The position numbers and the translations under genes were made by a program. 64,000 nt of DNA from an uncultured Methanosarcinales archaeon (lineage in GTDB: Archaea > Nanobdellota > Nanobdellia > Woesearchaeales > GW2011-AR9). The notes under the pieces were generated by a model. That model had not been told where the DNA came from and ran no database searches. It worked only from the letters and a program-made list of their open reading frames with translations. Positions within the stretch are counted from its first letter, which is position 1, and each line of letters begins with the position of its first letter. Location: assembly GCA_964344285.1 (NCBI GenBank), contig CAYFMM010000003.1:67072-131071 (forward strand), written 5' to 3'. Of the stretch, positions 16,961 to 62,254 are shown one piece after another.

Positions 16961-18916
16961 TTAATTTACTTTAAGTACAACAAAACTCCCTTCAGCTTGG
17001 TGTACTGGAGTAAACAAACCAGAATCTAGAAATTCTGTGTAACGTTGTTGTAAGAGAGTTTGTGTCCCATTGATCTCAAATAATGCATTAAAATACTTCA
17101 AGTCCATTAGAGGGTTAACAACAAAATATTCGTACTCATTCTCTTTTAAGAAGGTATAAAGATCATTAGCATCTTGCTCTAGTATCGAAGCACGTATGTC
17201 TTGAACTTCTTGGCACCATTCACAACTATATGCCCCGTATCCTATTGTTAGTTTATCTCGAGGAGAGTACAAAAACACAGGAGTATTATCTGGAATTGAG
17301 TCAAACCATTGGCCATATTGGAAAGGTTCTTGTGCAGACATAAATGAACCTGAAGTTGGCCAGATTGCAGTATTAAGTTCGTACTTTTGTTGAGCAGAAG
17401 TCAATAAAAGCCCTCCAATCACTATAACAAATAATGCAAGTTTTAATACTTTTTCTCGTCTGAAAAATGTAAGAAGTGCATAAAACCCTTCAGCTGCAAC
17501 TAAAGAGATTGGAATTGCCATAAGCATCCAAATACGAAAGGGAGCTCTTGCCACAGACACAGGAAAAGTTTGTCCATTGACACCCCAAAAAGTATAGATT
17601 AACCAAATCAGTGCCACTGCTCGCCACATATTTTTTTCAGTTACGATTGATGTTTTGTATCTAAAGATGAGATAAATCACTCCAAATAATGTCAAAATAG
17701 AGAGCACTATACCTACACCAATAGGATTATTGATCATGTTTTGTCCTTGTGCTACAAAAAAATCGCTAAATGTATACGCTCTAGAACCAGTACCACCTGG
17801 ACGTGTAATTGTTTGAAAAAATGAGACGATGAATTGTACGAGGTTAAAACCAGCTGAACCACCTAAGGCAAGTGTCTCTCCAGCCAGAGTTGTGCCACCC
17901 CCATAATATGCTACAAACTTACTAAAAGAGTATTTGTAGATCATTACACCCCACCAAAGCAAAGAGAGAATAATTCCGCCGGCTAAAGCAGCAAATTCAA
18001 TTTTCTTAAATTTCTTAGAAGTAATAGATGCAACGATAATATAGAGTAAAATTAAGGTTGAAAGTTTGATTGGTTGAGATATATTTTGACTAACCCAAAT
18101 TCCAGCTACCATAATTGCTGCCACATAAGCCCAACGTTTATCCTCAGATATTTTCAAAAACGCATACATTGTTGGAAAGAAAAGTGTGACTACAAGACTA
18201 TGAGCCCAAATAAAGTGGCTTAAGTAAGAAGGGATTACTGCTAAAACAAATGTTGCAAAGAGTGCTTTTTTTGAATCATGCATAAAGATTTTTGCAAAAA
18301 GATAAAAGAAGATAAACCCTAAAGAGATGATCAAGGAGTTAAAAAATTTGAGTGTCCAAGGCAAATCAGGAGCTGTTTGGTGAAGAATTCCCATTAAAAC
18401 GTTATATGCAGGAGGATAAATGTCAATATAGGACAAAACCACATCAATTTCATCAGTGTTAAGCTCAGGATCATATGCATTCTTTTCTACAGCCACATAT
18501 TTAGCACCAACTGAATGACCCCAAGGGTCTTCATTTTCTAAATAAGGATAACCAAATGCGCCTGAAAGATATGTGAATAATGATGCTATAGAGATTAAAA
18601 GAACAAGTAATAACATAACATCTTTTTTTGTTAGTTTAAAACTTTTGAATGTAAAGATTGGTTGTTTTCTTTTAACCTTAGTGTAGAGATCATAAATGGG
18701 GTAAGCCATACTTACTACAAGAAATATTTTCCAATCCAAAGGGATGCGTAAAAAATTAATTAAAACTGAGAGAATTGCAAAGACTCCTAAGCCCAACGAA
18801 ACATTTACAAAAAAGCGTTCTAATTTAGTTATTTGAGGGTTCCACCAAAAGGTTACTGTATGGCCCAGCCCCCATGTGTAAAGGAAGAACAGAAGAATCG
18901 TCACTATGTTTATCAT
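16961..18916 (-). CDS. polytopic GT-C-like membrane glycosyltransferase candidate
   Basis: 651 aa with about 13 TM helices and a ~150 aa C-terminal soluble domain. Overlaps the upstream GT-C gene by about 92 nt, so the start is uncertain. Confidence 0.4.
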   Translation of the reverse strand: MINIVTILLFFLYTWGLGHTVTFWWNPQITKLERFFVNVSLGLGVFAILSVLINFLRIPLDWKIFLVVSMAYPIYDLYTKVKRKQPIFTFKSFKLTKKDVMLLLVLLISIASLFTYLSGAFGYPYLENEDPWGHSVGAKYVAVEKNAYDPELNTDEIDVVLSYIDIYPPAYNVLMGILHQTAPDLPWTLKFFNSLIISLGFIFFYLFAKIFMHDSKKALFATFVLAVIPSYLSHFIWAHSLVVTLFFPTMYAFLKISEDKRWAYVAAIMVAGIWVSQNISQPIKLSTLILLYIIVASITSKKFKKIEFAALAGGIILSLLWWGVMIYKYSFSKFVAYYGGGTTLAGETLALGGSAGFNLVQFIVSFFQTITRPGGTGSRAYTFSDFFVAQGQNMINNPIGVGIVLSILTLFGVIYLIFRYKTSIVTEKNMWRAVALIWLIYTFWGVNGQTFPVSVARAPFRIWMLMAIPISLVAAEGFYALLTFFRREKVLKLALFVIVIGGLLLTSAQQKYELNTAIWPTSGSFMSAQEPFQYGQWFDSIPDNTPVFLYSPRDKLTIGYGAYSCEWCQEVQDIRASILEQDANDLYTFLKENEYEYFVVNPLMDLKYFNALFEINGTQTLLQQRYTEFLDSGLFTPVHQAEGSFVVLKVN

Positions 18917-29741: not shown

Positions 29742-32700
29742 ATGCACGAAAATAGTATGAATAAGGATGGGGTTTTGGGAGGAAAAAAGCTACGTATTGC
29801 GTATTGTGGAGTAGTTGGAGATTTGTTTCATTACGGTCATTTACAAAGTTTACTCTTTGCAAAGTCTATTTCTGACGTTAGTATTTGCGGAGTGTTTACA
29901 GATGAAGTTGTAGAGACATATAGAGAAAAACCAATTGCAAATTTTCAAGAGAGGTTACCTATTTTTCAGAATTTACGCTGTGTAGATAGAGTAATGATCC
30001 AAAATGAAAGAGACCCTACAGATAATTTGAAACGGATTCATGAGGAGTTCCCTGATGCAGAGATTATCTTAGTACATGGCGATGATTTAAGTTACGTGCA
30101 CGGCTCAGATTATGTAAAAGAGATTGGAGGAAGAGTTGCAAAGCACCCTTATTACCAACGCCTTTCAACATTTAAGATTATTAACACATTACTTGAGCGT
30201 AAAGATAAAATCAAAGATATAAAATCACTCTCTTCTTACATCACAGATAAAGAAGACCTTGATGAAGAAGCAAAGCGAGGAAACAAGTTTATTATTTCAT
30301 CAAAGGCCGATACGTTAAAGGCGCTAAAACCATTATTAAAGAAGAGTAAGGTTGAAGGGTTGTATAGTTTTTCTGTACAAGAATGGGAAAATAGACAAGC
30401 AGAGATCATACAAGCAATACAAACAACTTTTGGCAATACTTTACTTGTTGTAAGAAATTCAGTGATTAAAGAACATATTTCTGCTAAATTTGATGATAAT
30501 TCATTCCCTTATTTTACAAAAATAGACAGTGAGAATAAAGAAGAAATAATCTCAAGTGTACAGGAGATCATTAGTGCATATGAACAAAATCTTGAAGAGA
30601 CACGACAGCAACAAATTTTAATTCAACCATCAGTAGAAGTAATGATTAAAGGAAATGCATATCCTTCAACCTCTGGGAAATATCTTTTATTGAACTGTGA
30701 TTATTTTTCCCAAGGAAAAAGAGTTAGAAATGAAACATTTAGAATTAGTCCAAAAGATAAAGAGATCCCTACTCTTATTGGTAAGGCAAAAGAAGCCATT
30801 GAGGAAATTCAAAGCCTCATTCCCAATATGAAATTGGACGTTAATTTTGCTATCTCTAAAGAGGGAGAGGTGTACATTTTTGACGTTAACTTATTGTCTG
30901 ATCTATTTGTGCATGGCTGGGGAGGAACAACCTCAATCCAGTCATTAGAATGCCATACACTTCGTTATGTTGATTTTCCAAAGAGAATTGGCAATGCTAT
31001 TGACCGAAGAATTTTTTGTGAGATTCGTAAAAAACATCACACTGTATATTTTGACAAAAAGGATGTAGAAAGATGGAATAATGAAGGAATAATATTGCTA
31101 GAGGCAAGAGAAAGAGAAAGAATAATCAAAGATAATTTAGAACAAATTGAAAGATTTTTTTCATTTTATGTAGATCATAAAAATACAAACTTTGCTAAGA
31201 AAACGGACCAAGAATTGTCTGTAGTTTATAGTGAACTGTTAAATCTTGTGATGGAAAATGGTTCATTTTTCCCTTACTCTAGAGAGGAAACTGTAAAGCC
31301 CATTAAAGATAAAGTTATGGAATTATTAAAAGGAGTACACAATCCACAAAAAATATTACAAAAATTAACTACTCCAGTTGAAGAAGATTTATTCTTACGA
31401 GAGCAAAAAGAACGTTTGGTCGCATTTAAAGATGGAAGCAAAGAGGGATTGATGCATTATGCCACACTTCATCCTTGGCGTTTTATCAATACGTATTCAT
31501 CAGAAGCCATTTATGAATTTTTAAGGCAAGAGCAACAGGAGACAAATCTGCAAGATTTGCAGCAAGAGATTACACAAAAAGAAGAAGAAAATAGAGAACG
31601 TAGAATTGAACAAGAGAAATTGTTTAAGGAGATTGATAATCATGAGCTGCAAGAATTATGTATGTTTTTACAGAAGATTGCAGTTGTAAGATTAGAGAAT
31701 AAAAATATTTGGGCAGGGTATGAGTATTTATTCTTAGGATTATTTGAAGAGATAGCATCTAGATTAGAGTTAAGTATTGAAGACTTCTTATACACCTATA
31801 GGATTGAAGAGATTAAAGAGTTTTTAATTGAAGGAAGAAAGCTTTCTTTAGAAGATATTACAAGAAGATTAAAATATTTTAATTTAGAAATTTTTCCACA
31901 TAGAACTATTGTAGGATATAAATTAAAGTACGGAAAAGAGTTAGAACATCAACAGCAAAAAGAAGGAGTTTTAGTAGGGGAAGCAGGAAACTTAGGCAAA
32001 GTAGTAGGAAGGGCATTAGTGGTTACAGACGATAGCATTAGCTCTTTGATGAAACTAAAAAAAGAAATGACTTCTGAGGACATTTATATCACAACTATGA
32101 CTCATCCTGCCATGGTTTCCTTATTACATAAGGCAAAAGGAATTGTAACTGACGAAGGAGGGATCACTTCACACGCAGCCATTATCTCAAGAGAAATGGA
32201 TATCCCTTGTTTGGTAGGAACACGTGTAGCCACAAGATATTTTAAAACAGGAGACATTATCGAATTAGATTCTTATAATAAAAAAGTTAAGAAAGTTGAG
32301 GGAATTGATTTAGCTACCTATAATGCACAATTGTCTCCAAAGCAAGAGGAAGAAGAATGTGATATCTCCGTATTAGAGATTACAAAACCAAAAATTGACA
32401 AAAGTATTCCATACACCTTATCCTTTAGTGAGCTTTTGGGCAAGGGGAATCTTGTTGGAGGGAAGGGAGCAAACTTAGGGATTTGTTTTGCTAACCATAC
32501 TGTGCCCGATGGTTTTAGTATTACTCGAAGATTGTATGATGAAATATTAGGTCAGTTTTTGGGAGAAAGGGAATTCCTAAGGATTGATTTAGAGAGTGAT
32601 GCAAAATTATTAGAAACTGTTAGAGAATTTATCAAAGATTATAAGTTTCCAGAAGAGTTAGTACAAGAGGTTGAAACAAGATTATCTTCATTAAGAGGAA

Positions 32701-33302
32701 AACAATTTGCGGTACGAAGTTCTGCTTCATGTGAGGATTCTGCGCAAAATAGCTTTGCTGGTCAGTTCAGTAGTTATTTAGGAGTTAAAAAAGAAGGCGT
32801 AATTGATGCAGTAAAAGATTGTTTATGTTCTGCATTCATGGAAAATGTGTTTTCATATATTGCATTAAGCAAATTAAGTTTAGAACATTTTTTTATGAGC
32901 GTTGTTGTACAAAAATTTGTTGAGAGCGAAAAGTCAGGAGTTCTATTCTCGCAAAACCCAAGTGATCCATTGATTGAAGGGTTTTGGATTGATGCAAATT
33001 TTGGCGTAGGAGAATCAGTAGTTTCTGGAGAAGTTAAACCAGACCAATACTTTGTGCATGCAATGGGCGTTGATATGAAAATTTCAGATGAGAAGGAAGC
33101 TTATTCTTATGCTTCTGGAAATCTATCTTCAGAAAGAAAAGAGGGAAGAGTTCTAGAGGATTCTGAAATTCAAGAGTTAGTTGATTTAGGAAAGAGATTA
33201 AAAGATTATTATGACAAAGAGATAGAATGTGAATGGGCTTATTTTGAGAATAAGTTACATTTGCTACAAGTCAGACCGATTACGGTAATAAGAGAGGAGT
33301 AA
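29742..33302 (+). CDS. multidomain enzyme: TagD-like cytidylyltransferase + central domain of unknown function + PEP-utilizing phosphohistidine swivel domain + PPDK_N ATP-binding (ATP-grasp) domain
   Basis: N-terminal HxGH motif (CGVVGDLFHYGHLQS, glycerol-3-phosphate cytidylyltransferase-like). Phosphohistidine motif GGITSHAAIISREMDIPCLVG near residue 800. C-terminal PEP synthase/PPDK N-terminal nucleotide-binding domain (LVGGKGANLG...FAVRSSASCEDS). Domain order is permuted relative to PEP synthase. Confidence 0.6.
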   Translation: MHENSMNKDGVLGGKKLRIAYCGVVGDLFHYGHLQSLLFAKSISDVSICGVFTDEVVETYREKPIANFQERLPIFQNLRCVDRVMIQNERDPTDNLKRIHEEFPDAEIILVHGDDLSYVHGSDYVKEIGGRVAKHPYYQRLSTFKIINTLLERKDKIKDIKSLSSYITDKEDLDEEAKRGNKFIISSKADTLKALKPLLKKSKVEGLYSFSVQEWENRQAEIIQAIQTTFGNTLLVVRNSVIKEHISAKFDDNSFPYFTKIDSENKEEIISSVQEIISAYEQNLEETRQQQILIQPSVEVMIKGNAYPSTSGKYLLLNCDYFSQGKRVRNETFRISPKDKEIPTLIGKAKEAIEEIQSLIPNMKLDVNFAISKEGEVYIFDVNLLSDLFVHGWGGTTSIQSLECHTLRYVDFPKRIGNAIDRRIFCEIRKKHHTVYFDKKDVERWNNEGIILLEARERERIIKDNLEQIERFFSFYVDHKNTNFAKKTDQELSVVYSELLNLVMENGSFFPYSREETVKPIKDKVMELLKGVHNPQKILQKLTTPVEEDLFLREQKERLVAFKDGSKEGLMHYATLHPWRFINTYSSEAIYEFLRQEQQETNLQDLQQEITQKEEENRERRIEQEKLFKEIDNHELQELCMFLQKIAVVRLENKNIWAGYEYLFLGLFEEIASRLELSIEDFLYTYRIEEIKEFLIEGRKLSLEDITRRLKYFNLEIFPHRTIVGYKLKYGKELEHQQQKEGVLVGEAGNLGKVVGRALVVTDDSISSLMKLKKEMTSEDIYITTMTHPAMVSLLHKAKGIVTDEGGITSHAAIISREMDIPCLVGTRVATRYFKTGDIIELDSYNKKVKKVEGIDLATYNAQLSPKQEEEECDISVLEITKPKIDKSIPYTLSFSELLGKGNLVGGKGANLGICFANHTVPDGFSITRRLYDEILGQFLGEREFLRIDLESDAKLLETVREFIKDYKFPEELVQEVETRLSSLRGKQFAVRSSASCEDSAQNSFAGQFSSYLGVKKEGVIDAVKDCLCSAFMENVFSYIALSKLSLEHFFMSVVVQKFVESEKSGVLFSQNPSDPLIEGFWIDANFGVGESVVSGEVKPDQYFVHAMGVDMKISDEKEAYSYASGNLSSERKEGRVLEDSEIQELVDLGKRLKDYYDKEIECEWAYFENKLHLLQVRPITVIREE

Positions 33303-34120: not shown

Positions 34121-34136
34121 TTTTAAGGTATATAAA
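34121..34136 (+). promoter_or_regulatory. candidate archaeal TATA box (TTTTAAGGTATATAAA)
   Basis: A strong TATA-like octamer directly abuts the first in-frame ATG of the following ORF. This suggests the true start is the downstream Met at 34211. It lies in a divergent intergenic region. Confidence 0.3.
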
Positions 34137-34210
34137 TGTTATGGTCTAGTAATCACTTCCAAGGAGTTCCTAAAGAAAGTTTTTTAAAATATGTCTCTTT
34201 TGAGCGACGT

Positions 34211-35491
34211 ATGCCTATAGGCACAATCATGTATGTTAATGAACCTGGCGACCCTTTAAACAGAAGTAAACTATGGGGACTCACTCGTCAAGCAGATGTG
34301 CTATTCTTTGCGTTTTCCCATAGAGGTTTAGTAGATGTTTTTGAGGAAGGTTGGAACAATTTTGTGGAAAATCCCCATAAATTACAAGGACCTATGTTAG
34401 ATGAATTAGTACAAGGAGGGATCCCTAAAGACCAGCTATTCCTTGGACAAGTCGCACGAGTACAACATCAAGATATAGGGGAAAAAACAAAAGTTGTGTT
34501 AGAACGAGTTACTTCTGAATTTCCCAGACAAGAAATGGCAGAATTGTTAGAAAATTCTCGAAGACCTTTCATTGAAGGTGAAATTGAAAAAGGCGTTCAA
34601 AATTTTGGAAGATATTGTAGTTTACTCGGCTCACAAATAGTAGCACGTAATAGAGCAATGGCTACACAGATACAAGCGCAAGAAGGGCGAGTTCTTACTG
34701 TTGTAAGCGACTCTATGAGCACAGTTTGGGAGAATATAAGAGAGGTAGAATTACATAGAAACCTGCCCAAACAACCAGCATCTCCTTGGCAAAGAGTGGT
34801 TCCATTTTATGAAGGTAAAGAGGATGATGTTGAACTGCGAGATGTATTCTTACGAATTATGGGTGCAGATACGATTTATAGTCTTGCTGAGAAAATAGAG
34901 CCTATAGCACGAGTTGCAGTTGCATCTCACTACGCAAATATTTTGTCTCAAGACCAAATCATTGGACTTAGAGATTACACAGATACTTGTCTTAGAACCC
35001 ATGCAGCAAATCCAGTTATTGCATTAATTGCTCCTGAACCAAAAGGGCAAGAGATTCTTGATTCTTATCTTGCAAGTCAAGGAGTAACATCTGTTTATGA
35101 TACACAGGAGGAGCAAGGACTGAACGATATGGATATGGATAGAAGTGAAAAAGCAAGGATAGTTATGGATGAGATGACGTCCATAGCAAAATATGTCCAA
35201 TCTGAAGGATATGATGCAGAGAGAACATTTGCACTTATAAAAATTCATGAACTTCGTCGAGGTTTTGAATTTGGAGGTGATCCGTTCGATATGGATATGT
35301 CTCTTACAATGATGCGACATAATGCAGGATATCGTCAATCAATGCGAGAGATTAGTCTGCTTGATGGTGGAATTGGATATAATATGTTAGAAAGACTTGC
35401 AACAGACACAGGATTTAGAAATGAGATGATGAGTACCTATAAAAGCCAAGTTCTCCCTGAACTGCAACGACAAAGAGCAAGTCTTTCGTAG
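34211..35491 (+). CDS. hypothetical protein (no recognisable motif), in the higher-GC block
   Basis: Long ORF with Lys-poor, Asp/Glu/Arg-rich composition unlike the rest of the window. Start set at the internal Met MPIGTIMYV. Confidence 0.5.
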   Translation: MPIGTIMYVNEPGDPLNRSKLWGLTRQADVLFFAFSHRGLVDVFEEGWNNFVENPHKLQGPMLDELVQGGIPKDQLFLGQVARVQHQDIGEKTKVVLERVTSEFPRQEMAELLENSRRPFIEGEIEKGVQNFGRYCSLLGSQIVARNRAMATQIQAQEGRVLTVVSDSMSTVWENIREVELHRNLPKQPASPWQRVVPFYEGKEDDVELRDVFLRIMGADTIYSLAEKIEPIARVAVASHYANILSQDQIIGLRDYTDTCLRTHAANPVIALIAPEPKGQEILDSYLASQGVTSVYDTQEEQGLNDMDMDRSEKARIVMDEMTSIAKYVQSEGYDAERTFALIKIHELRRGFEFGGDPFDMDMSLTMMRHNAGYRQSMREISLLDGGIGYNMLERLATDTGFRNEMMSTYKSQVLPELQRQRASLS

Positions 35492-37288: not shown

Positions 37289-38251
37289 TTATTCTGCAAT
37301 CTGCACGTATTTTCCAAGTGCTTGAGTATTTTGAACTTGGTAGTTATCAGGCAAACCTGATCTATTACCTTCTCCTACCAAAGAAGCATCCGTTCTTCGC
37401 CATTTAAATTCAGGAGCAAAAAGACCAGATCCTTTATCTACTTCAAATACCATCTCTAAAGTCCCTGCTTGTGGCATTGGATTTCCATCATACAAATCTA
37501 CCGCATTGTTCCCTACTCCTGAACCATCAACTACTCTTGCAATAGCATCAATGTTAAAGTCATGAGTGGCACCCCGTGCTACTCTTGTTGGCCCACGGGA
37601 AACTTCCCCTAGAAAATGATTTAATGCTCGGTCTGCAAGATCTTGAGGGTGTTCTTCTACCCGAGGATCATTTCTATCAAATGCTACGTCAGCTTGATAT
37701 GCAAATGTTCTTATCAAACCATGCTTTGCATATTCTGCTTTTACATCAGGCTGTCCTGATTCTACAAAGAGTTGATGTCCTGAAGGATCATCAACAAGAG
37801 TTCCTTCTTGGTTGTAAGCTTTGAAATTTGCCTCCCTAAGAGGTTTTCCTGATTCCCAATCAAAGCGATTAAATTCTGCTGAAGTCTGAGGTTTTAGGTT
37901 TCCTAATATGTGTACTTTTCTAAACTGATCAGGTTCAAGGCCAAGTCTCCCATAAAGTTGGAATAACATACCTGTTCCAGAGTAATGTGTTGTCTGTTCT
38001 GCTCTTTTAACATCGGAAGGCCCTAAATAGATTTTATCTCCCTCATTTAATTCTGGGATATATGCTTCAAATCCACGTGCCTCAGCATTTTCCATTCCTT
38101 CTCTTGAGATTGGTGCTTCTCTTCCAAAACTCTCTCCTGCTCCAGACCAACCCGCCTTTTCATCTCTTGTTTGCGCTTGTTGACCTGGTGTTGTAAAATC
38201 TCTTGGTTCATGTCGTTCAAACGCGACGACAACTTCTTCAAAATTTGTCAT
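37289..38251 (-). CDS. hypothetical protein, in the higher-GC block
   Basis: About 320 aa ORF with Gly/Asp/Ala/Arg-rich, Lys-poor composition. No recognisable motif. Start set at the internal Met MTNFEEV. Confidence 0.45.
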   Translation of the reverse strand: MTNFEEVVVAFERHEPRDFTTPGQQAQTRDEKAGWSGAGESFGREAPISREGMENAEARGFEAYIPELNEGDKIYLGPSDVKRAEQTTHYSGTGMLFQLYGRLGLEPDQFRKVHILGNLKPQTSAEFNRFDWESGKPLREANFKAYNQEGTLVDDPSGHQLFVESGQPDVKAEYAKHGLIRTFAYQADVAFDRNDPRVEEHPQDLADRALNHFLGEVSRGPTRVARGATHDFNIDAIARVVDGSGVGNNAVDLYDGNPMPQAGTLEMVFEVDKGSGLFAPEFKWRRTDASLVGEGNRSGLPDNYQVQNTQALGKYVQIAE

Positions 38252-38456
38252 AATAATCAATCCTCCATTGAGTATATGGAGAAAGCACAAAATTGTCGAA
38301 CAAAATGTTGTGCTTTCTAATCTAGCTCAGGCAACAAGAATGTTTGAACATTTATTGCCTTCACTATACTAAGAAACAAGAATTTTTACTTTATAAAAGT
38401 AATGGCAAGGAATTAATCCACAATACTTATATACACTAAACCAAGAAACAAGCATA

Positions 38457-39278
38457 ATGAATCCATTCAAAATCATACGTACATATGGGATTAAAAGTAT
38501 TATTCAAAATATTTTCTCGTTAATGATTAGTGATGTTCATGTAGTGTCATTTGAGAAATGTGGCAGGACATGGCTTCGAGTGATGATTGCAAAGTTAATT
38601 GCAAAAAAACTAAAGAAAAAGAGATTAAATTTAGATACACAATTTATGACGTTAGGAAAAGCATTTCCAAATATTGTATTTTCACATGCAGGAGGAAATC
38701 AACTAAATAACAAGATTAATTTTAAGAAACTTTTCAAGAATAAAAAAATTATTTTTTTGGTACGTGATCCTAGAGATTTGATTGTGTCATTATATCACGA
38801 GTATACAAAGCGAAGAAAAATTTATGCAGGAAGTATTGCAGATTTTATACACGACAAGAAATATGGCATACACGCTCCAATTAAGTTTATGAATTATTGG
38901 GCAAAGGAAATGGAAAAAAGACCCCAAGATTTTTTATTAATTAGATTTGAAGATTTAAAAGATAATACGCAAAAAGAATTGCAACGGATTGTTGATTTTT
39001 TAGGTGTTAAAATCAACCAAGATATAATCCAAAAAGCAGTTGATTTTGGTTCTATGGAAAATATGCGCAGATTAGAACAAAGTAATGTTCTTAAAGATGC
39101 AAGACTAGCTCCTGTAGATAAAAAAGATCCTAATTCATACAAAGTTCGCAAAGGTAAAAAAGGAGGTTTTAAAGAGGAATTATCCTCCAAAGATATTGCT
39201 TTTGTAGAGGATTATATTAGAGATCATCTTACATTAAATCTAGAGTATTCAAAGAAATCCGACACCTCCGCAGACTAG
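38457..39278 (+). CDS. sulfotransferase family protein (PAPS-dependent)
   Basis: 5-prime PSB-like motif FEKCGRTWL and 3-prime PB motif FLVRDPRDLIVSLYH. Confidence 0.65.
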   Translation: MNPFKIIRTYGIKSIIQNIFSLMISDVHVVSFEKCGRTWLRVMIAKLIAKKLKKKRLNLDTQFMTLGKAFPNIVFSHAGGNQLNNKINFKKLFKNKKIIFLVRDPRDLIVSLYHEYTKRRKIYAGSIADFIHDKKYGIHAPIKFMNYWAKEMEKRPQDFLLIRFEDLKDNTQKELQRIVDFLGVKINQDIIQKAVDFGSMENMRRLEQSNVLKDARLAPVDKKDPNSYKVRKGKKGGFKEELSSKDIAFVEDYIRDHLTLNLEYSKKSDTSAD

Positions 39279-39415: not shown

Positions 39416-40210
39416 ATGAATTATTCTCGTGAGTTAGAACTTGCAAAGCAAGCTGCTGTAGAGGCTGGAAAGAGAGTTATGGAATATTATGATTCCAATA
39501 ATGCTAGTGTATATTCTAAAGAAGATAAAAGTCCTTGCACGGCAGCAGACCTTGCAGCAAATGAAATTATTGTTAAAAAAATTAAAGAAGAATTTTCAGA
39601 AGATGGAATTTTAACCGAGGAAGCAAAAGACGACTTAACTCGATTACAAAGAAGTAGAGTCTGGGTTATTGATCCATTAGATGGAACAAAAGAATTTATT
39701 TCACATAATGGAGAATTTACAGTAAATATTGCATTGGTTGAGAACAATGAACCTGTAATTGGCGTTATCTATGTTCCTGCACTAAAAGAATTATTTTATG
39801 GTTCTAAGGAGGGGAGTTTTGTAGAAAAAGACGGAGTTGTGCAAAAATTACAAGTTTCAACACGTTCAAATTTGAATGAAATGATCTTGGTAAAAAGTAG
39901 ATCTCATAGTTCTGCAAAAGAGGCACAATTAGAAACTCAATTTGCAGAGACTAAAGTGAGTGGAAGTTCTCTAAAAGGGTGTCGCATTGCTCAAGGTAGA
40001 GCTGATGTGTATTATAGATTTGGCCCAACTCATGAATGGGATATTTGCGCTATGAGTTGTATTCTTGCGTTTGCAGGAGGAGTTATGACTACTTTAGAAG
40101 GGAAATCTTTAAGATTCAACCAAGAGCAGACACTAATACAAGGTTTTGTAACATCAAACAATACAATTCATGAAAAGTTAGTAAATCTTAGCGAGGTACA
40201 AAATGGATAG
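39416..40210 (+). CDS. cysQ: 3-prime(2-prime),5-prime-bisphosphate nucleotidase (CysQ / inositol monophosphatase family)
   Basis: IMPase motifs WVIDPLDGTKEF and the later WDICA. Confidence 0.7.
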   Translation: MNYSRELELAKQAAVEAGKRVMEYYDSNNASVYSKEDKSPCTAADLAANEIIVKKIKEEFSEDGILTEEAKDDLTRLQRSRVWVIDPLDGTKEFISHNGEFTVNIALVENNEPVIGVIYVPALKELFYGSKEGSFVEKDGVVQKLQVSTRSNLNEMILVKSRSHSSAKEAQLETQFAETKVSGSSLKGCRIAQGRADVYYRFGPTHEWDICAMSCILAFAGGVMTTLEGKSLRFNQEQTLIQGFVTSNNTIHEKLVNLSEVQNG

Positions 40211-41006
40211 ATTAGATATGTTAGAAGCTCAGGCGATTTATGTTTTGCGAGAAGCATACAAGAAATTTGGAAAGTTAGGCATGTTATGGTCTATGGGAAA
40301 AGATTCAACTGTAATGTTATGGCTTGCAAAAAAAGCATTTTTAGGACATGTGCCTTTTCCGTGCATCCATATTGATACAACTTTCAAGTTTCCAGCAATG
40401 TACGAATATCGAAGTAAGATAGCAAAAGAATGGAATCTTAACTTGCTAATTGGAAAGAATGAAGAAGCACTCGCAAATGGTGTAAATTATGATAATTATC
40501 CTGCTCTTAAGGTTTGTGAAGAACTAAAAACAAATGCATTAAAGCAATTTGTTGAAAAGAATAAGTTTGAAGGTTTAATTTTAGCAATTAGATCAGATGA
40601 AGAGGGTTCACGTTCTAAAGAAAGGTTTTTTAGTAAAAGGAACGCTGATTTTGAATGGGATTATACTGACCAACCTCCTGAATTGTGGGATCAATTTAAT
40701 ACAGATTATAATAAAGAAGAACATATTAGAGTACATCCTATTTTGCATTGGACAGAACTTGATGTGTGGGAATATGTTAAACGGGAGAAAATTCCTTTAA
40801 TTGATTTATACTATGCAAAAGATGGGAAGAGATATAGAAGCTTAGGGTGTATGCCAATTACTCATCCAATCGATTCAAATGCACAAACTGTTGATGAAAT
40901 TATCGAAGAATTAAAACAAACAAAGGTCTCAGAAAGAGAGGGTAGAGGTCAAGATAAAGAAGATAAGTATGCACTACAAAAGTTAAGAGCAAAGGGGTAT
41001 ATGTAA
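40203..41006 (+). CDS. cysD: sulfate adenylyltransferase subunit 2
   Basis: PAPS-reductase-fold motif LWSMGKDSTVMLWLAKKAF. 8-nt overlap with the cysQ-like gene. Confidence 0.85.
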   Translation: MDRLDMLEAQAIYVLREAYKKFGKLGMLWSMGKDSTVMLWLAKKAFLGHVPFPCIHIDTTFKFPAMYEYRSKIAKEWNLNLLIGKNEEALANGVNYDNYPALKVCEELKTNALKQFVEKNKFEGLILAIRSDEEGSRSKERFFSKRNADFEWDYTDQPPELWDQFNTDYNKEEHIRVHPILHWTELDVWEYVKREKIPLIDLYYAKDGKRYRSLGCMPITHPIDSNAQTVDEIIEELKQTKVSEREGRGQDKEDKYALQKLRAKGYM

Positions 41007-41007
41007 A

Positions 41008-41214
41008 ATGGTTACAGAAAAAAAGAAACGAAGTATTGCAAAGGCGCTGAGTTGGAGAGTTACAGCAACATTAATTACAACAGTTCTTGTTTTTATATTT
41101 ACAGGTCAGTTTACATTAGCAATCTCAGTGGGGGTTGTTGAAGTCTTATTGAAAATGCTAGCGTATTATGCGCATGAACGTTCATGGGACAAAATTAACT
41201 GGGGGAGATTTTAA
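41008..41214 (+). CDS. small two-helix membrane protein (DUF2061-like) inside the cys operon
   Basis: 68 aa with two hydrophobic helices, tightly packed between cysD and cysN with overlapping stop and start. Confidence 0.4.
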
Positions 41215-43085
41215 TGGATAAGGCACTCAAATTTGTTGTAGTAGGTCACGTAGATCATGGAAAATCAACATTAATTGGTAGACTATTAGCAGATACAAAC
41301 TCAGTCATGGATGGTGTTTTAACAAAAGTAAAAAATACATGTCAGGAGAAAGGCATTGAATTTGAGTATGCATTTTTGCTAGATGCATTTCAAGAAGAAC
41401 AAGAACAAGGGATTACAATTGATACTACAAAGATTGAATTTTCAACAGATAAAAGAGATTACACTATTATTGATGCTCCAGGACATAAGGAATTTCTAAA
41501 AAACATGGTTAGCGGTGCTTCTAGTGCAGAAGCTGCATTATTAATTATTGATGCTAAAGAAGGTGTAAGAGAGCAATCAAAAAAACATGCATATATTTTG
41601 TCCTTAATTGGGGTAAAACAAATTTATGTGATTATTAATAAAATTGACTTAGTTCAATATTCTCAAGAACGCTTTAACGAAGTGAAATTTGAGATGGATG
41701 CATATTTACGCAAGCTTGGAATAGAAGCTCAAAAATTCATCCCTATTTCTGCTAAGTTAGGAGATAATGTTGCGATGAGTTCCTCTAATCTTGCATGGTA
41801 TCAAGGAGAAACTGTTTTAGCTGCAATTGATAATTTTACAAAGAGTGAAGAGATGCATGACAAACCATTACGAGTTCCTGTGCAGGATGTGTATAAATTT
41901 GATGCACGTAGAATTATTGCAGGAAGAGTAGAAAGCGGTTCAATTAAAATTGGAGATAAAATCACGTTATATCCCTCATTAAATACTACAACAGTTAAGT
42001 CTATTGAAGAATGGAAAGTTCAGACTGAGAGTAATCAAAAGAAAGCTGGAGATTGTGTAGGGTTAACGTTTAATGATGAATTCTTTTTGCAAAGAGGCGA
42101 GGTTATTGCAAGAGCTGATGAAAAACCAAGAGTACGCAATTTATTGCATTGTAATTTTTTCTGGATGGGTAAAGAAGATCTTGCCATTGGTAAAAAGTAT
42201 AAATTAAAGCTTAATACACAAGAAGTAGAATGCGAGATCCACACAATTAATAGTGTTGTTGACTCCAATACTCTTGAAAAAATTCCCGGTAAGCATTCGT
42301 TATCTAAGAATGATGTAGGAAATTTAGTTATTAAAACAAAACAACCAGTTGTATTTGATGCATTTTCTGAGATTCCAACTACAGGAAGATTTGTGCTCGT
42401 AGATAATAATATTGTGTGTGGCGGAGGTATCATTGAGAATACAAGTAATGAATTGCAACAACGTGAAGTTGTAGAAACTAAAAGTGAATTAGTATCTCCA
42501 AAACAAGGTATGGTGTCTAATCTTGAGAGAGAAAAACGCCAAGGCCACCGAGGAAAAGTAGTGTGGATTACAGGACTTTTAGGAAGCGGAAAGGAAAAAA
42601 TTGCCCAATATGTTGAGCGAGAGTTGTTTGATAAAAGGATGGGCGTGTATTACCTTGATGCAGGAAATATTCGTTTTGGGTTGAGTTCCAACCTAGATTA
42701 TAGTGAGGAATCTCGTAAAGAGCATGTGCGAAGGATTGCTGAAACTGCAAACTTATTTGTGCAAGCAGGATTAATAGTTGTAGTTTCTGTTGTAAGCCCA
42801 TATAAAGAACATCGGGCCCTTGCAAGACAACTTATTGGAGAGAATAATTTCATGGAAGTATTTGTTGATGCTCCAATAGAAGTATGTAAGCAAAATAACC
42901 CACATGGCATTTATTCTTCTGCAGATCAAGGAAAGATCTCAAGTGTTCCTGGAGTCAATTTCCCTTATGAAAGATCAGATTATTTGATTTATACATTAGG
43001 GATTAACTCTAGTGAGGATAATTTGCAAGAAAAAGCAAAACAATTAGTAGATTTAGTTTGTAAAGATGTTACCAAACAAGATTAA
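41214..43085 (+). CDS. cysN: sulfate adenylyltransferase subunit 1 (GTPase) fused to a C-terminal APS-kinase-like domain
   Basis: EF-Tu-like GTPase motifs [12 protein letters not shown] and DAPGH. The C-terminal ~180 aa are APS kinase-like, but the P-loop reads GLLGSGKE (no Ser/Thr after GK). Confidence 0.85.
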
Positions 43086-43671
43086 TGCAACAAACATAAC
43101 GTGGCACAAAGAGGCTGTTACAAGAGAAGATCGCAGGACACTTCTTGGAGTTAAAAACAAGGTAGTGTGGTTTACTGGACTTTCAGGTTCAGGAAAATCC
43201 ACGTTAGCAAGAGAAGTTGAAAAAGGTTTACATCAGCAAGGTGTCTTGTGTTATGTGTTGGATGGCGATAATATTAGACATGGATTAAATCAAGATTTAG
43301 GTTTTTCTAAAGAAGAACGAGATGAAAACATTAGAAGAATTGCAGAAGTGAGCAAATTACTATACGAAGCTGGTGTTGTTGTATTAGTAAGTTTTATTAG
43401 CCCTTATAGAAAAATGCGTGATTTTGCAAGAAACTTAATTGGAGAAGATTTTGTTGAAGTGTTTGTTGATTGCCCTATTGAAGAATGTCAAAAAAGAGAT
43501 GTTAAAGGATTATATCAAAAAGCGTTGGCAGGGGAGATTACAGGATTTACAGGAGTTGATGATCCATATGAAAAACCAGAGAATGCCCAGATTACAGTTG
43601 AGACTTCTAAACTTTCTATTTCCAAGGCAAAGGACAAAATAGTTAGTTATCTGCTTTCTTTAAACGCATAA
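43066..43671 (+). CDS. cysC: adenylylsulfate (APS) kinase
   Basis: Canonical P-loop [16 protein letters not shown] and downstream APS kinase motifs. Confidence 0.85.
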
Positions 43672-46918: not shown

Positions 46919-47860
46919 TTGACAATGAAGAAAACTAATCTGTTTATTGTAGGAGCGCCAAAATCTGGCACAACAACAATGTTTGAGTTGTTAAAGCAAC
47001 ATCCGGATATTTTTGCACCAGAGAATCGTGAGCCTAATTTTTTTTGTCAAGATATTAACAGATCTGTGTTAAAATATCAGAAGGTACGTTTTTACAATCG
47101 TTGGTTTTATAGAACATATGTTGAGAAATTAGAAGAATACAAAAATATTTTTAATAAATGGGGAGATGAGAAATATGCACTAGATGGGTCATCAGGGAGA
47201 TATTTATATTCTAAAGAAGCTGCACAAGAGATTGCAGAATTTAATTCTGATGCTAAGGTTTTAATTATGATTCGTAACCCCATTGACTTTTTACGTTCCC
47301 TACATTCACATTTTGTTACGCATTTTAGCGAGGACATTGTTGATTTTAAAAAAGCTCTTGAAGCTGAGAAAGAGCGTAAACAAGGAAGAAAAATTCCAAA
47401 AGGTTCTAAGTGTCCTGCACAACAGTTTTATTCAGAGATCTCAAAGTTTAGTGAACAGATTACACGTTTTAAGAAATATTTCCCAGAAGAGCAAGTTAAG
47501 ATTATTATTTTAGATGATTTTAAAGATGATATGCAAAAAGTTTTCCAAGAAGTTCTTGATTTTTTAGGTATTAATGTCACACAAGAAATCAATTATGAGA
47601 TTAAGAATGTGAATAAAAAAGTAAGTTCAAAGTGGATGGGTAAATTTCTTGTTACATATCCTTTTGTTTGGAAGTTTTGTAAGAAGATCCTTCCAATAAG
47701 TGTATATCAAAAAATCCGTAATAAAGTTATTAAGCCACAAAAAAGAGAAAAATTAGACGTTGATTTTAGAAAAGAATTAGAGCAAAGGTTTAAAGAAGAA
47801 GTTGAAAGTTTGAGCAAGATTACAAAAAGAGATTTACTTTCACTTTGGGGTTTTACATAG
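46919..47860 (+). CDS. sulfotransferase family protein (PAPS-dependent)
   Basis: 5-prime PSB motif VGAPKSGTTTM and 3-prime PB region MIRNPIDFLRSLHSH. Confidence 0.7.
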   Translation: MTMKKTNLFIVGAPKSGTTTMFELLKQHPDIFAPENREPNFFCQDINRSVLKYQKVRFYNRWFYRTYVEKLEEYKNIFNKWGDEKYALDGSSGRYLYSKEAAQEIAEFNSDAKVLIMIRNPIDFLRSLHSHFVTHFSEDIVDFKKALEAEKERKQGRKIPKGSKCPAQQFYSEISKFSEQITRFKKYFPEEQVKIIILDDFKDDMQKVFQEVLDFLGINVTQEINYEIKNVNKKVSSKWMGKFLVTYPFVWKFCKKILPISVYQKIRNKVIKPQKREKLDVDFRKELEQRFKEEVESLSKITKRDLLSLWGFT

Positions 47861-50971: not shown

Positions 50972-51086
50972 AGGTGGACAGCTAACCAAGTTTCCCGCGT
51001 AATGCAGTACACCAAGGAACGGAAGCGCGCTTAACTTCTGTGTTCGAAAAGGGAACAGGTGAACCACGCCCCTATGGCCGTCCAAT
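50972..51086 (-). rRNA. rrf: 5S ribosomal RNA (boundaries approximate)
   Basis: The minus strand reads TGGACGGCCATAGGGGCGTGGTTCACCTGTTCCCTTTTCGAACACAGAAGTTAAGCGCGC...GCTGTCCACC. This carries the universal 5S loop C and helix III motif (CCGAACAC.GAAGTTAAGC). The 5-prime GGACGGC pairs with the 3-prime GCTGTCC as helix I. It is a GC-rich island in AT-rich surroundings. Confidence 0.75.
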
Positions 51087-56134: not shown

Positions 56135-57403
56135 CTATCGCACTATTTTTACTACTTCTTTTATTCCCAGCAATTGTTCATCACCTGTTTGCATATCCCG
56201 TAACATTACTTTCTTTTTTGCAAGTTCGTCTTCGCCAAGGATAATTGCATAAGGAATACCTAAAGCGTTTGCGTATTGTAAGTTTTTGCTAACTCCTTTT
56301 TTTCCAATTACAATGTCTGCTGGGATTTTTGCATCACGCAGCGTTGCTACGATTTCTAAAGATTCATTAAGAGTTCCAAGGGGTACTACTAAAACTTGAG
56401 TTGGAGTTTGCTTTGCTTTTTCTCCTTTTAGTCTAAGAGCATCCATTATTGTTTCAATTCCATACGAAATTCCAATTGCAGGAACTACTCTGCCACCTCC
56501 TAAAAAAGAACCAATGATATTATCGTAGCGTCCACCACCAGCAATAGAAGAGGTAATGGATTTATCTTTAAGGAACGCTTCTGTAACAGTGCCTGTGTAA
56601 TATGCTAAACCTCGTGCTAAGGAGATATCAAATTCTACGTTGTTAATGCCAAGCTGGTTTAGATAGGTAAAGACTTCAGTGAGCTCTTGAATGCCTTCTT
56701 GAGCAGTTTTATTTTGTACTTTTTCTTGGAGTTGTGTAAGAGATGTTTTTTCATCTATGAACTCAAAGATCTTTTTTGCATTTTTGATTTTGCGCTCTTC
56801 TAATTCTTTTAAGACCCCTTTTTGACCAATTTTTTCTAATTTGTCAATTGCAATAATTGCATTTTCTTTGTCTTTAATACCACATTCTTCTAAAATCCCA
56901 TTGAGAATTTTTCGATTGTTTACTTTGATTACTGCATCAAGATTGAGTTTAGAAAAACCAGTGCTAAGAACTGCTAGACATTGTGCATCTGCAAGCATGG
57001 ATGGTGTTCCAATAATATCTGCATCCATTTGCCAAAATTCCCTATATCTACCTAGTTTGATTGGGCCATCTCTGTAAACACGACCTACAGCGTAGCGCTT
57101 AAAGGGCATTTTTAAGGTTGGATTCATTGCCACATATCTTGCAAGCGGTACTGTTAAATCAAAGCGTAAAGCTAGTTTACGTTTTCCCTGGTCTGTTAGT
57201 TTAAATGTTTCTTTCATTGCATCAGAGTCTTCTCCAGCTGCAAATTTTGCAGCAAGGGTTTCATAGCGCTCAATAATTGGTGTTTCAAGTGGCGCAAATC
57301 CATAGAGTTCAAAGACCTCTTGCAATGTGTTAATTACTTTATTTTTGAGTAGTTTATCTTCGGGGTTAATGTCCCGGGTTCCTTTTGCGTTTTGTAATTT
57401 CAT
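56135..57403 (-). CDS. hisS: histidyl-tRNA synthetase
   Basis: Class II aaRS motifs with the HisRS N-terminus (KGTRDINPED...) and a C-terminal anticodon-binding domain. Confidence 0.85.
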   Translation of the reverse strand: MKLQNAKGTRDINPEDKLLKNKVINTLQEVFELYGFAPLETPIIERYETLAAKFAAGEDSDAMKETFKLTDQGKRKLALRFDLTVPLARYVAMNPTLKMPFKRYAVGRVYRDGPIKLGRYREFWQMDADIIGTPSMLADAQCLAVLSTGFSKLNLDAVIKVNNRKILNGILEECGIKDKENAIIAIDKLEKIGQKGVLKELEERKIKNAKKIFEFIDEKTSLTQLQEKVQNKTAQEGIQELTEVFTYLNQLGINNVEFDISLARGLAYYTGTVTEAFLKDKSITSSIAGGGRYDNIIGSFLGGGRVVPAIGISYGIETIMDALRLKGEKAKQTPTQVLVVPLGTLNESLEIVATLRDAKIPADIVIGKKGVSKNLQYANALGIPYAIILGEDELAKKKVMLRDMQTGDEQLLGIKEVVKIVR

Positions 57404-58460: not shown

Positions 58461-58537
58461 TGGGGCGACCGGGGGGAATCGAACCCCCTCCTGAAGCTCC
58501 ACAGGCTTCTATGCTAAACCGTTACACCACGGTCGCC
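58461..58537 (-). tRNA. tRNA-His (anticodon GUG) with genome-encoded G-1 and 3-prime CCA
   Basis: The minus strand reads GGCGACCGUGGUGUAACGGUUUAGCAUAGAAGCCUGUGGAGCUUCAGGAGGGGGUUCGAUUCCCCCCGGUCGCCCCA. It has an 8-bp acceptor stem including G-1:C73, anticodon loop CUGUGGA, and T-loop UUCGAUU. Confidence 0.85.
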
Positions 58538-60691: not shown

Positions 60692-62254
60692 TTATTCCTT
60701 TCCTCGCCTCAAAATTACATCATCTATCCGTAAAATCATTTCTGCTACGTGTGTTGCACTTGAAAGGGCTTGTGTTTTGACTTTTAATGGTTCAATAACA
60801 CCTTCTTGCCATGCATCCATTACATTTCCAGTAAAAACGTTAATCCCTGGCCACATTAGATCTTTTGAGGAGTGTAGGCTTGTTAAAACATTAATTGGAT
60901 CTAATCCTGCATTTTCTGCTAATGTTCGAGGGATTACTTCTAATGCTTTTGCATATGCTTGAACTGCTAGTTGTTCTCTTCCTGCAAGAGTTTGAGCGTA
61001 TTGTGTGAGTTGTTTTGTAAGTTTCATTTCAACAGCTCCTGCTCCAGCTACTACAAAGCCGTCTTTAAGTGCTGCTGCAATGTCACCTAGAGCATCAACA
61101 ATTGCCCGTTTGATTTCTTCTACAATGTGAGGAGTTCCTCCTTTTACAAGAATTGTGAGTGCTTTAGGATTATAACATTGTTCAACAAGAATCATTTCTT
61201 CATCTGCAATTTTTTCTTCTTTTACAGAACCCGCGTTTCCAATATCACTTGGAAGAATTTCTTTAAGATTGCTCACAATTGATGCCCCTGTTGCTTTTGC
61301 AAGCATTTCCATATCACTTTTACGAACTCGTCTAACTGCAAGAATTCCTGCTTTTGTAAGATAGTGTTGAGCAACTTCATCAATTCCTCTTTGACAAAAG
61401 ACTACGTTTGCATTTGTTGCAATAACTGCATCAACCATTTGCTTTAGGGTTCGTTCTTCTTGCTCTAAAAAGGCATTTAGTTGGGAAGGGTCTGTGATTT
61501 GAATTTTTGCATCAATGTCTGTATTTTTAATTTCTAAAGGTGTGTCGATAAGAAGGATTTTTGCATTTTCAACATATTGAGGCATGGAAGGGTGAACACG
61601 CTCTTTATCAAGAGCAATTCCTTTAAGAAGAGAACTATTTTCAACAGCGTCTCCTACAAGAGTAATGACTTTAATATTATCTTTTTGTAGCTGTTCTTGT
61701 CCTGGAGATGCAATTGTCAAAACCGCTTGTAATAATAAGTCTGCAAGGTGTGCTTTATTTGCCTCAGCCCCTTTTCCAGTCATGGCAGTAATTGCAATAT
61801 TTAAAAGAAGGTCATTATGATTAATACTTACTGGTTGTGCAATTTGTCTAAGAATCTTTTGTGACTCTGTTTCTGCTAACCTATACCCTTTAGCTAGTAC
61901 AGTAGGGTGAATATTTTGATCAAGTAGTTGTTCTGCTTGTTTAAGTAATTCTCCTGCTATAATTACAGCAGTTGTTGTTCCATCTCCAACAACGTCTTCT
62001 TGTGTTTTTGCAATCTCAACAACCATTTTTGCTGCTGGATGCTCAATTTGCATCTCTGTAAGAATTGTAACACCATCATTTGTAACAATAACATCGCCAG
62101 CTTCATCAACAAGCATTTTGTCCATTCCTTTTGGCCCTAGTGTTGTGCGTACTGCTTGTGCTACTGCTTTTGCTGCTAAAATATTATTATGTTGTGCCTC
62201 TTGTCCTGATTCTTTTGTTGTATTGTCTGATGTAATTGTAGACATAAAAACCAC
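60692..62254 (-). CDS. ths: thermosome subunit (group II chaperonin)
   Basis: [10 protein letters not shown] and [12 protein letters not shown]-binding motifs, GDGTTT, and 520 aa length. Confidence 0.9.

Follow-up and report, generated by a model that had tools for sequence, protein, structure and literature searches.

The cysN-cysC locus and its fused domain

The stretch of DNA considered here, 64,000 nt of contig CAYFMM010000003.1 (assembly GCA_964344285.1, positions 67,072 to 131,071 of the forward strand) from an uncultured archaeon placed by GTDB in the Woesearchaeales, is hereafter termed the window. It carries a cluster of sulfate-activation genes in which CysN, the GTPase subunit of the heterodimeric ATP sulfurylase, bears a C-terminal domain related to adenosine 5'-phosphosulfate (APS) kinase, and in which a separate APS kinase gene, cysC, follows directly. 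The fused domain departs from active APS kinases at several catalytic positions, and its likely function is the subject of this analysis. The features concerned are as follows.

41214..43085, + strand: CysN with an APS-kinase-like domain, 623 aa (open reading frame (ORF), Pfam, NCBIfam)
41214..42443, + strand: CysN GTPase body, aa 1-410, G motifs intact (Pfam, TIGR02034, translation)
42549..42974, + strand: degenerate APS-kinase-like domain, aa 446-587 (Pfam PF01583, E 1.9e-48)
42573-42599, + strand: degenerate Walker A, GLLGSGKEK, aa 454-462 (direct translation)
42654-42674, + strand: LDAGNIR replacing LDGDNIR; Asp482 and the APS-binding Arg487 kept, catalytic-base Asp replaced by Gly484
42885..42953, + strand: lid segment; Cys558 kept, ATP-stacking Arg replaced by Asn561, lid Lys by His564, APS-stacking Phe by Val578
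43066..43671, + strand: stand-alone canonical CysC, 201 aa (ORF, Pfam, NCBIfam)

The body of the fusion protein has the features of CysN, with Pfam matches to the EF-Tu-type GTPase domain GTP_EFTU (aa 4-208) and to GTP-eEF1A_C (aa 315-408), a score of 360.5 against the CysN model TIGR02034 (cutoff 336.1), the G1-G4 motifs including NKID, and cysD nearby (40203-41006). The 623-aa protein stays below the cutoff of the bifunctional CysN/CysC model NF004035 (573 against 715), and its C-terminal domain taken by itself clears the apsK model TIGR00455 (170.6 against a cutoff of 138.7), which explains why annotation pipelines name such proteins kinases. The stand-alone CysC matches Pfam APS_kinase at E 1.6e-68 and TIGR00455 with 253 against the same 138.7. 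A preliminary description made from the sequence alone had reported both the aberrant GLLGSGKE at the C-terminal domain of CysN and a canonical P-loop in the next gene, and direct translation bears out the two observations, the former as GLLGSGKEK in the interval given above and the latter as GLSGSGKST at aa 38-46 (nt 43177-43203). CysC also contains GFTG and carries the canonical residue at every catalytic or ligand position compared.

A sequencing or frameshift artefact was considered as the origin of the unusual motifs and is ruled out, as separately made NCBI, ENA and Logan assemblies contain the identical CysN and the pattern is common to 77 homologues.

Residue-level comparison with an active APS kinase

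The roles of individual residues were taken from the crystal structures of Mycobacterium tuberculosis CysC (PMC4373884), with positions assigned by alignment to solved kinases. In that enzyme, Lys456 touches the β and γ phosphates, Ser457 ligates Mg2+ and Ser458 binds the β phosphate; Asp478 holds a Mg-bound water, and Asp480 is the proposed catalytic base (PMC4373884). Mutation of the residue equivalent to Asp480 in the mouse APS kinase abolishes activity, as stated in PMC4373884. On the substrate side, Arg483 and Arg497 hold the phosphosulfate, and Phe492 and Phe576 sandwich the APS adenine (PMC4373884). In the lid, Arg559 stacks on the ATP adenine, Lys562 stabilises the transition state and Cys556 acts as the hinge (PMC4373884). 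The corresponding positions in the fused domain, given after the M. tuberculosis residue, are these.

K456, K460: kept
S457 (Mg2+ ligand), E461: lost
S458, K462: lost
D478, D482: kept
G479, A483: changed
D480 (catalytic base), G484: lost
R483, R487: kept
F492, Y496: conservative change
R497, R501: kept
S524-P525, S528-P529: kept
C556, C558: kept
R559 (ATP stacking), N561: lost
K562 (lid), H564: lost
F576 (APS stacking), V578: lost

Inspection of the motifs thus places the fused domain outside the pattern of working APS kinases at three separate sites: GLLGSGKEK departs from the Walker A consensus G-x-x-G-x-G-K-[ST]-[ST], the LDGD(N) loop reads LDAGN and is without its second Asp, and the lid carries His564 and Asn561 in place of the lysine and the ATP-stacking arginine. 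The preliminary description was therefore right about the P-loop and understated the extent of the degeneracy, since LDGDNIR has also become LDAGNIR and the lid motif RDPKGLY reads NNPHGIY. Alignment of both domains with characterised kinases, which it had proposed as a check, leaves the fused domain without four catalytic residues rather than with the complete set. In the APS pocket the picture is mixed, with Arg487, Arg501 and Tyr496 retained but the second stacking aromatic (Phe576) replaced by Val578. As judged from these alignments, the machinery for binding ATP and Mg2+ and for phosphoryl transfer appears to be dismantled, and most of the pocket for APS or its product 3'-phosphoadenosine 5'-phosphosulfate (PAPS) appears to survive along with the backbone of the P-loop.

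Conservation, phylogeny and predicted fold

The 120 best matches of the full-length protein comprise 77 with a degenerate second domain, 35 canonical CysNC fusions and 7 of an intermediate type, here called EGE. Across the degenerate set, the Gly/Gly/Lys of the P-loop (G453, G455 and K456 in M. tuberculosis numbering) are invariant (77/77), and Arg483 and Phe492 are each retained in 76 of the 77. Conversely, the Mg2+-ligating serine at position 457 is found in none (0/77), being replaced by Asn in 62 and Glu in 8; the adjacent position 458 is Glu in 67/77, and the catalytic Asp480 is likewise absent throughout (0/77). The nearest named relatives of the window CysN belong to metagenome-assembled genomes (MAGs) of Woesearchaeota and Nanoarchaeia.

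In neighbour-joining (NJ) trees built from Kimura-corrected distances with 200 bootstraps, the degenerate and EGE domains together split from all canonical kinases in 200/200 replicates, with the degenerate set alone recovered in 134/200. Within the degenerate class, the G domain has a mean pairwise identity of 0.71, CysN domains II-III reach 0.61 and the pseudo-kinase domain 0.60, and 21 columns are invariant in a 24-sequence alignment of the degenerate domains. The pseudo-kinase domain is hence as conserved as domains II-III, a pattern that indicates purifying selection and, as far as sequence divergence can tell, a level of constraint equal to that on the working parts of CysN.

The EGE group (P0014, P0016, P0018, P0019, P0021, P0028, P0036 and the locus L043, 2804-4693) has a canonical GKTT P-loop and shows DGD changed to EGE, the lid Lys changed to His (Gln in P0028) and the stacking Phe changed to Val. 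The sole EGE locus examined, L043, also has a separate APS kinase, fused to a DUF2061 domain, and the group is therefore probably inactive as well.

An AlphaFold2 (AF2) model of the fused domain has a mean predicted local distance difference test score (pLDDT) of 91.8 and a predicted template-modelling score (pTM) of 0.88, and its best Foldseek matches are active APS kinases (3UIE/4FXP; template-modelling (TM) score 0.86-0.89). A wider search of representatives clustered at 50% identity found about 5,500 proteins matching the domain at E<1e-10; in the best 150 of these, which were inspected as a sample and not as a census, about 10 are degenerate and the rest mostly canonical, so that the clade is a minor part of the family as a whole. 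Metagenomes scanned with the window domain gave five weak partial matches, limited to residues 1-43.

Pairing with a canonical APS kinase

The genomic surroundings of the degenerate fusions were surveyed with a scan of species-representative genomes, for which nine Clostridium-type sequences served as query and which consequently samples the Clostridium/Melainabacteria subclade and not that of the window. Each locus was scored with the APS-kinase hidden Markov model and its catalytic columns were read, a kinase with GKST, DGD and the lid Lys being counted as canonical. The scan identified 29 loci that carry a CysN of the degenerate type, in Clostridium species, Asaccharospora, Sarcina, MAGs of Bacillota, Melainabacteria/Gastranaerophilales and a single gammaproteobacterial MAG, as well as four remnant-only loci. 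Leaving aside two loci cut by contig ends (L005 and L024) and one with a fragmented cysN (L016), 25 of the 26 loci with usable flanks have a separate canonical kinase in the same cluster.

Several loci illustrate further states of the fusion. In Clostridium sp. Marseille-Q2269 (L016, 8543-10498), cysN is split over three short ORFs, its degenerate kinase part alone being whole, and neither cysD nor cysC was detected nearby; this looks like a decaying locus. In the four remnant-only loci, three from Victivallales MAGs (L032, L034, L035) and one from an unclassified bacterial MAG (L033), a CysN of about 620 aa retains an APS-kinase remnant of only about 80 residues, in which neither the P-loop Lys nor DGD can be recognised; degeneration has gone a step further here.

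In the window's own subclade, the order cysQ-cysD-cysN-cysC, with the degenerate domain on CysN and with or without a sulfotransferase, is seen in a Nanoarchaeia MAG (L038) and in two further contigs (L046, L047), and in both L038 and L047 cysN overlaps or directly adjoins cysC. The association is carried further in a triple fusion on an archaeal contig (L002, 8001-10514), which joins CysN, pseudo-kinase and kinase in one polypeptide; proteins of this type (P0002-P0004) comprise 824-837 aa, with a degenerate kinase domain followed by a canonical one. The linker of the triple fusions retains the N-terminal W-H segment that opens the stand-alone CysC of the window. In L036, the only Clostridium locus whose neighbouring genes have Pfam annotation, the order is cysC, AprA-like flavoprotein, ferredoxin, cysD and degenerate cysN, and in the other Clostridium loci cysC likewise lies upstream of cysD and the fusion, the clostridial cysC being 5-6 kb from cysN and not adjacent to it.

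When the window, the contigs of its subclade and L036 are included, 31 of 34 informative loci have the degenerate CysN together with a canonical APS kinase, either in the same cluster or as a third domain. By comparison, three loci with canonical CysNC fusions have the order cysH-cysD-cysNC, and none of them encodes a further kinase within 10 kb (0/3). The pairing of a degenerate fusion with a real kinase thus recurs in three distant lineages, namely Clostridia, Melainabacteria and DPANN archaea.

Function of the degenerate domain

These observations are best accommodated by a reading in which the fused domain is a catalytically dead pseudo-enzyme engaged in ligand-sensing regulation and assembly, with kinase activity supplied by CysC; we assign this reading as a whole a probability of roughly 0.55. 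Its parts differ in firmness. That the fused domain has no kinase activity and that such activity resides only in CysC is highly probable, on account of the loss of four catalytic residues, the presence of the base in 0/77 of the degenerate domains and the maintenance of a partner kinase. That its retained function is that of a ligand-sensing regulatory and assembly module is an evenly balanced proposition. A sensing role is favoured because a pure scaffold needs no invariant P-loop Gly and Lys combined with Arg483 and Phe492, and because the window's subclade also keeps Arg501 and the lid. In such a scheme, CysD and CysN would make APS, the separate and probably translationally coupled CysC would turn it into PAPS for the neighbouring sulfotransferases, and CysQ would then clear the resulting 3'-phosphoadenosine 5'-phosphate (PAP). 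The dead domain on the G-protein subunit would meanwhile sense PAPS or APS non-catalytically and aid assembly, so that the product level might be fed back onto the sulfurylase.

The inferences of the preliminary description, that the fused domain may be catalytically dead, that the kinase activity would come from the separate CysC and that the fused domain may serve in regulation or scaffolding, fare well on this evidence. The first is supported, at the level of sequence, by the loss of four residues, namely those that ligate Mg2+, serve as the proposed base, stabilise the transition state (Lys) and stack on ATP (Arg). The second gains likely support from the canonical residues throughout CysC and the co-occurrence in 31/34 loci. 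The third would agree with the predicted fold, the apparent purifying selection and the residue pattern shared with fungal sulfurylases (see below), which do not separate the two roles.

A number of points weigh against a sensor common to the whole clade. Arg497 is retained in only 12/77 degenerate domains, mainly in the archaeal-type subgroup that includes the window, and this sulfate-binding residue is mostly Ala in the larger Clostridium/Melainabacteria subclade, where the lid is also deleted (67/77 domains). The canonical APS/PAPS pocket is consequently not conserved clade-wide, and its apparent loss in the Clostridium/Melainabacteria subclade weakens a universal PAPS-sensor model and would favour a structural role there. 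In the window domain itself, the Glu beside the P-loop Lys might disfavour binding of the 3'-phosphate. Further, the pairing with a canonical kinase has its exceptions: none is present in the available sequence of L020 (about 7 kb upstream and 10 kb downstream), and there is no CysC within 10 kb in a Woesearchaeota MAG (L040) or in L042, where a CysH-like gene precedes cysD. Finally, the three canonical CysNC loci are all closely related and Verrucomicrobia-like, which makes them a thin control, and the homologues were chosen by their similarity to the query.

The principal competing explanation is that ligand function is gone and the domain acts purely as a scaffold or tether, which either dimerises CysD-CysN or docks CysC, the two then forming a pseudo-kinase/kinase heterodimer in which APS passes directly to the active kinase. 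The triple fusions are a Rosetta-stone hint of such physical association; the 20-nt overlap of the cysN and cysC ORFs in the window and the overlap or abutment of these genes in two related contigs also speak for this explanation. Moreover, helices α2 and α3, which form the dimer interface of APS kinases (PMC4373884), contain the positions that vary least in the clade (E..RR..E and R..A), and the Clostridium-type subclade lacks Arg497 and the lid. An AF2 model of the tandem in P0002 reaches a pTM of 0.74 although the linker, about 37 residues long, is disordered, but this is suggestive only, given a mean pLDDT of 69, two poor models out of five and an alignment of three sequences. A pure scaffold, however, fails to explain the universal retention of the P-loop Gly/Gly/Lys and the near-universal retention of Arg483 and Phe492, and sits poorly with a clostridial cysC several kilobases from cysN. 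On balance we regard it as possible but lean against it, while noting that scaffold and sensor roles are not mutually exclusive. A combination of the two, in which the dead domain replaces one protomer of the APS-kinase homodimer, pairs with CysC or the third fusion domain, and has its PAPS/APS occupancy gate GTPase and sulfurylase turnover, is a rather unlikely though specific proposal; if true, it would constitute a regulatory logic not described for CysDN and common to Clostridia, Melainabacteria and DPANN archaea.

Two further explanations deserve less credence. The domain might still be an active APS kinase with non-canonical catalysis, leaving the organism redundant for the step from APS to PAPS; its intact fold, the conservation of Lys460, Asp482 and both APS-binding arginines, and its score above the TIGR00455 cutoff speak for this. 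Yet replacement has affected each of four key residues (Mg2+ ligand, base, lid Lys of the transition state, ATP-stacking Arg), the Asp whose mutation inactivates the mouse enzyme, according to PMC4373884, is missing from the entire clade, and a dedicated canonical kinase is maintained in nearly all informative loci; retained activity is accordingly very unlikely. Most improbable of all is that the domain is a functionless relic of a once-bifunctional CysNC in the course of decay. Decay has gone further elsewhere, as the deleted lid of the Clostridium-type subclade and the short remnant in the Victivallales CysN attest, but the domain sequences of Bacillota, Melainabacteria and DPANN archaea remain about 60% identical, as much as CysN domains II-III, and the domain has its 21 invariant columns and a confidently predicted structure, and conserves even the replacement residues (GK-N/E-E). 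The reading of the domain as a dead, ligand-binding module for regulation and assembly remains the preferred one.

Genomic context in the window

The remaining members of the PAPS cluster and other recognisable features of the window are listed below.

38457..39278, + strand: sulfotransferase (PAPS consumer), upstream in the PAPS cluster (Pfam Sulfotransfer_1, E 4.3e-24)
39416..40210, + strand: CysQ-type 3'(2'),5'-bisphosphate nucleotidase (PAP removal; Pfam Inositol_P, E 8.6e-57)
40203..41006, + strand: CysD, catalytic subunit of the heterodimeric ATP sulfurylase (Pfam PAPS_reduct, E 2.4e-38)
41008..41214, + strand: DUF2061 predicted membrane protein, 68 aa (Pfam PF09834, E 1.4e-19)
46919..47860, + strand: second sulfotransferase of the cluster (Pfam Sulfotransfer_1 and Sulfotransfer_3)
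50973-51085, - strand: unlinked 5S rRNA
56135-57403, - strand: histidyl-tRNA synthetase
58461-58536, - strand: tRNA-His, near the histidyl-tRNA synthetase
60692-62254, - strand: thermosome subunit (735 bits against a cutoff of 450)

CysD scores 356.5 against NCBIfam NF003587 (cutoff 195), and CysQ, with 216 bits, falls slightly below the 228.8 cutoff of NCBIfam bisphos_cysQ. The DUF2061 ORF lies between cysD and cysN, its stop codon overlapping the cysN ATG (TAATG). A DUF2061 gene occupies the same position in the Woesearchaeota locus L040 (9798-10004), and in the EGE-type locus L043 (790-1521) a canonical APS kinase carries the domain as an N-terminal fusion; this placement and fusion suggest that the enzymes of sulfate activation are anchored to a membrane. 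On the 3' side, cysC is followed by genes for a CDP-alcohol phosphatidyltransferase, a DUF354 protein, a hexapeptide transferase and a methyltransferase, and then by the second sulfotransferase and a UDP-glucose dehydrogenase.

With two sulfotransferases and CysQ in the cluster, and no APS or PAPS reductase seen among the window ORFs scanned, PAPS is likely to be the end product, and on its gene content the operon evidently serves sulfation and not cysteine synthesis. The operon and its two sulfotransferases are embedded in a surface-glycan biosynthesis island of about 50 kb (positions 1-50000), which includes NeuB, cytidylyltransferases (CMP-sugar synthetase fusions), two DegT aminotransferases, glycosyltransferases of the GT1, GT2 and GT4 types, a flippase, epimerases (UDP-GlcNAc 2-epimerases) and the UDP-Glc dehydrogenase. 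A PAPS synthesis and recycling operon in such a setting implies sulfated envelope glycans in a DPANN-type archaeon.

The island also encodes some unusual proteins. One of 1186 aa (29742-33302, + strand) has a cytidylyltransferase-like domain at its N-terminus, a PPDK_N ATP-binding domain at its C-terminus and a PEP-utilising mobile domain as well, with about 650 middle residues that lack a Pfam match, and another of 690 aa (5004-7076, - strand) fuses a CTP_transf_3 cytidylyltransferase to a class-III aminotransferase. Three ORFs of 333, 451 and 651 aa (37289-38290, - strand; 34136-35491, + strand; 16961-18916, - strand) have no Pfam match, the first of them adjoining the sulfotransferase-PAPS operon on its upstream side on the opposite strand. 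The window further encodes a type II methionine aminopeptidase and a TrmB-family regulator. The aminopeptidase and the thermosome subunit, along with the 5S rRNA and tRNA-His features, identify the window as archaeal, and the named relatives of its CysN make a DPANN affiliation probable.

Implications for annotation and function

Members of the degenerate clade are inconsistently named in public resources (P0006, P0008, P0035, P0048, P0060, P0077), as 'bifunctional enzyme CysN/CysC' at JGI, 'adenylyl-sulfate kinase' at NCBI for archaeal MAGs and 'GTP-binding protein' at NCBI for Clostridium. The first two of these labels probably over-assign kinase function. If so, metabolic reconstructions that count proteins of this clade as APS kinases would be wrong, which would matter wherever a separate cysC is absent. 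Should the proposed role hold, Clostridium would offer a tractable system for the study of CysDN regulation, and the window would represent a DPANN-type archaeon with a complete operon for PAPS synthesis and recycling in a surface-glycan island, with sulfated envelope glycans as the implied outcome.

Comparison with known systems

The closest architectural counterpart is the CysNC/NodQ type, exemplified by M. tuberculosis Rv1286 and Sinorhizobium NodQ, in which the CysN GTPase is followed by an APS kinase and CysD lies upstream (PMC1780047; PMC4373884). The window protein has the same domain order, with cysD upstream; however, the CysNC/NodQ kinase domains are active, possess the lid Lys and require no separate CysC, whereas the window domain lacks the catalytic residues and is accompanied by a canonical CysC directly downstream. 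The two-domain APS kinase of Thiobacillus denitrificans (3CR8), one domain of which is described as a non-catalytic relic adapted to another purpose in work cited as reference 39 of PMC3734648, presents the reverse case, its kinase being canonical (GLSGAGKST, LDGD) and its sulfurylase-like domain inactive.

Among the clostridial relatives, the gene order of L036 (cysC, AprA-like flavoprotein, ferredoxin, cysD, fusion) matches the core of the Clostridium acetobutylicum sulfur operon CA_C0102-CA_C0110, a member of the CymR regulon whose last gene bears no annotation beyond that of a GTPase/sulfurylase subunit (PMC4845359); this comparison is one of gene order. The C. acetobutylicum operon serves sulfate assimilation, in contrast to the sulfation for which the operon in the window appears to be used. 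No account of a CysN with a degenerate kinase domain turned up in the literature searched, whose coverage leaves out most subscription journals.

A pseudo-enzyme domain on a sulfate-activating enzyme is, on the other hand, already known from the Sat-type sulfurylase of fungi. The C-terminal APS-kinase-like domain of the fungal ATP sulfurylase has no kinase activity, binds PAPS as an allosteric effector and confers inhibition by PAPS (PMC3734648; PMC3779200), and it has been described as both a regulatory and a scaffold or assembly element. Like the window domain, that of Penicillium chrysogenum (1I2D/1M8P) is an APS-kinase fold at the C-terminus of a sulfate-activating enzyme, and its motifs read GYMNSGKDA, LLGD and SDKRGIY. 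In 1I2D (residues 396-573), the P-loop Lys and the Arg/Arg/Phe of the APS site are kept and three positions have changed, Ser457 to Asp, Arg559 to Ser and Lys562 to Arg. Both domains therefore have an acidic residue in place of the Mg-ligating Ser (Glu in the window, Asp in the fungus), and both have Arg559 and Lys562 replaced. Residue by residue, the window domain would accordingly conform to the fungal pattern of a kinase fold with a disabled ATP/Mg site and a retained APS/PAPS pocket, and the analogy with fungal ATP sulfurylases drawn in the preliminary description seems to extend to the individual residues of the P. chrysogenum allosteric domain.

The correspondence is nonetheless incomplete and is not one of descent. 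In the fungal domain Asp480 and Phe576 are still present and Asp478 is gone, while the window domain shows the opposite. The predicted structure of the window domain matches 1I2D/1M8P with a TM score of 0.86, and its sequence identity is 27-28% to the fungal domain as against 37-40% to active kinases. Further, the fungal domain resides on a homo-oligomeric Sat-type sulfurylase that is not homologous to CysD/CysN, in contrast to the GTPase subunit that carries the window domain. In the NJ trees, it groups with the Sat-fused kinase of T. denitrificans (198/200 bootstraps), and every replicate (200/200) places it outside the degenerate clade linked to CysN, which points to independent origins and hence to convergence. 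If the proposed function is correct, a conserved and convergent case on the non-homologous, GTPase-driven CysDN would suggest that product sensing or docking by a dead kinase is a recurrent solution. The system in the window is thus a pseudo-kinase on the CysN G-protein subunit that evolved independently of the fungal one, a finding that corrects annotation and leaves the current understanding of sulfate activation in place.

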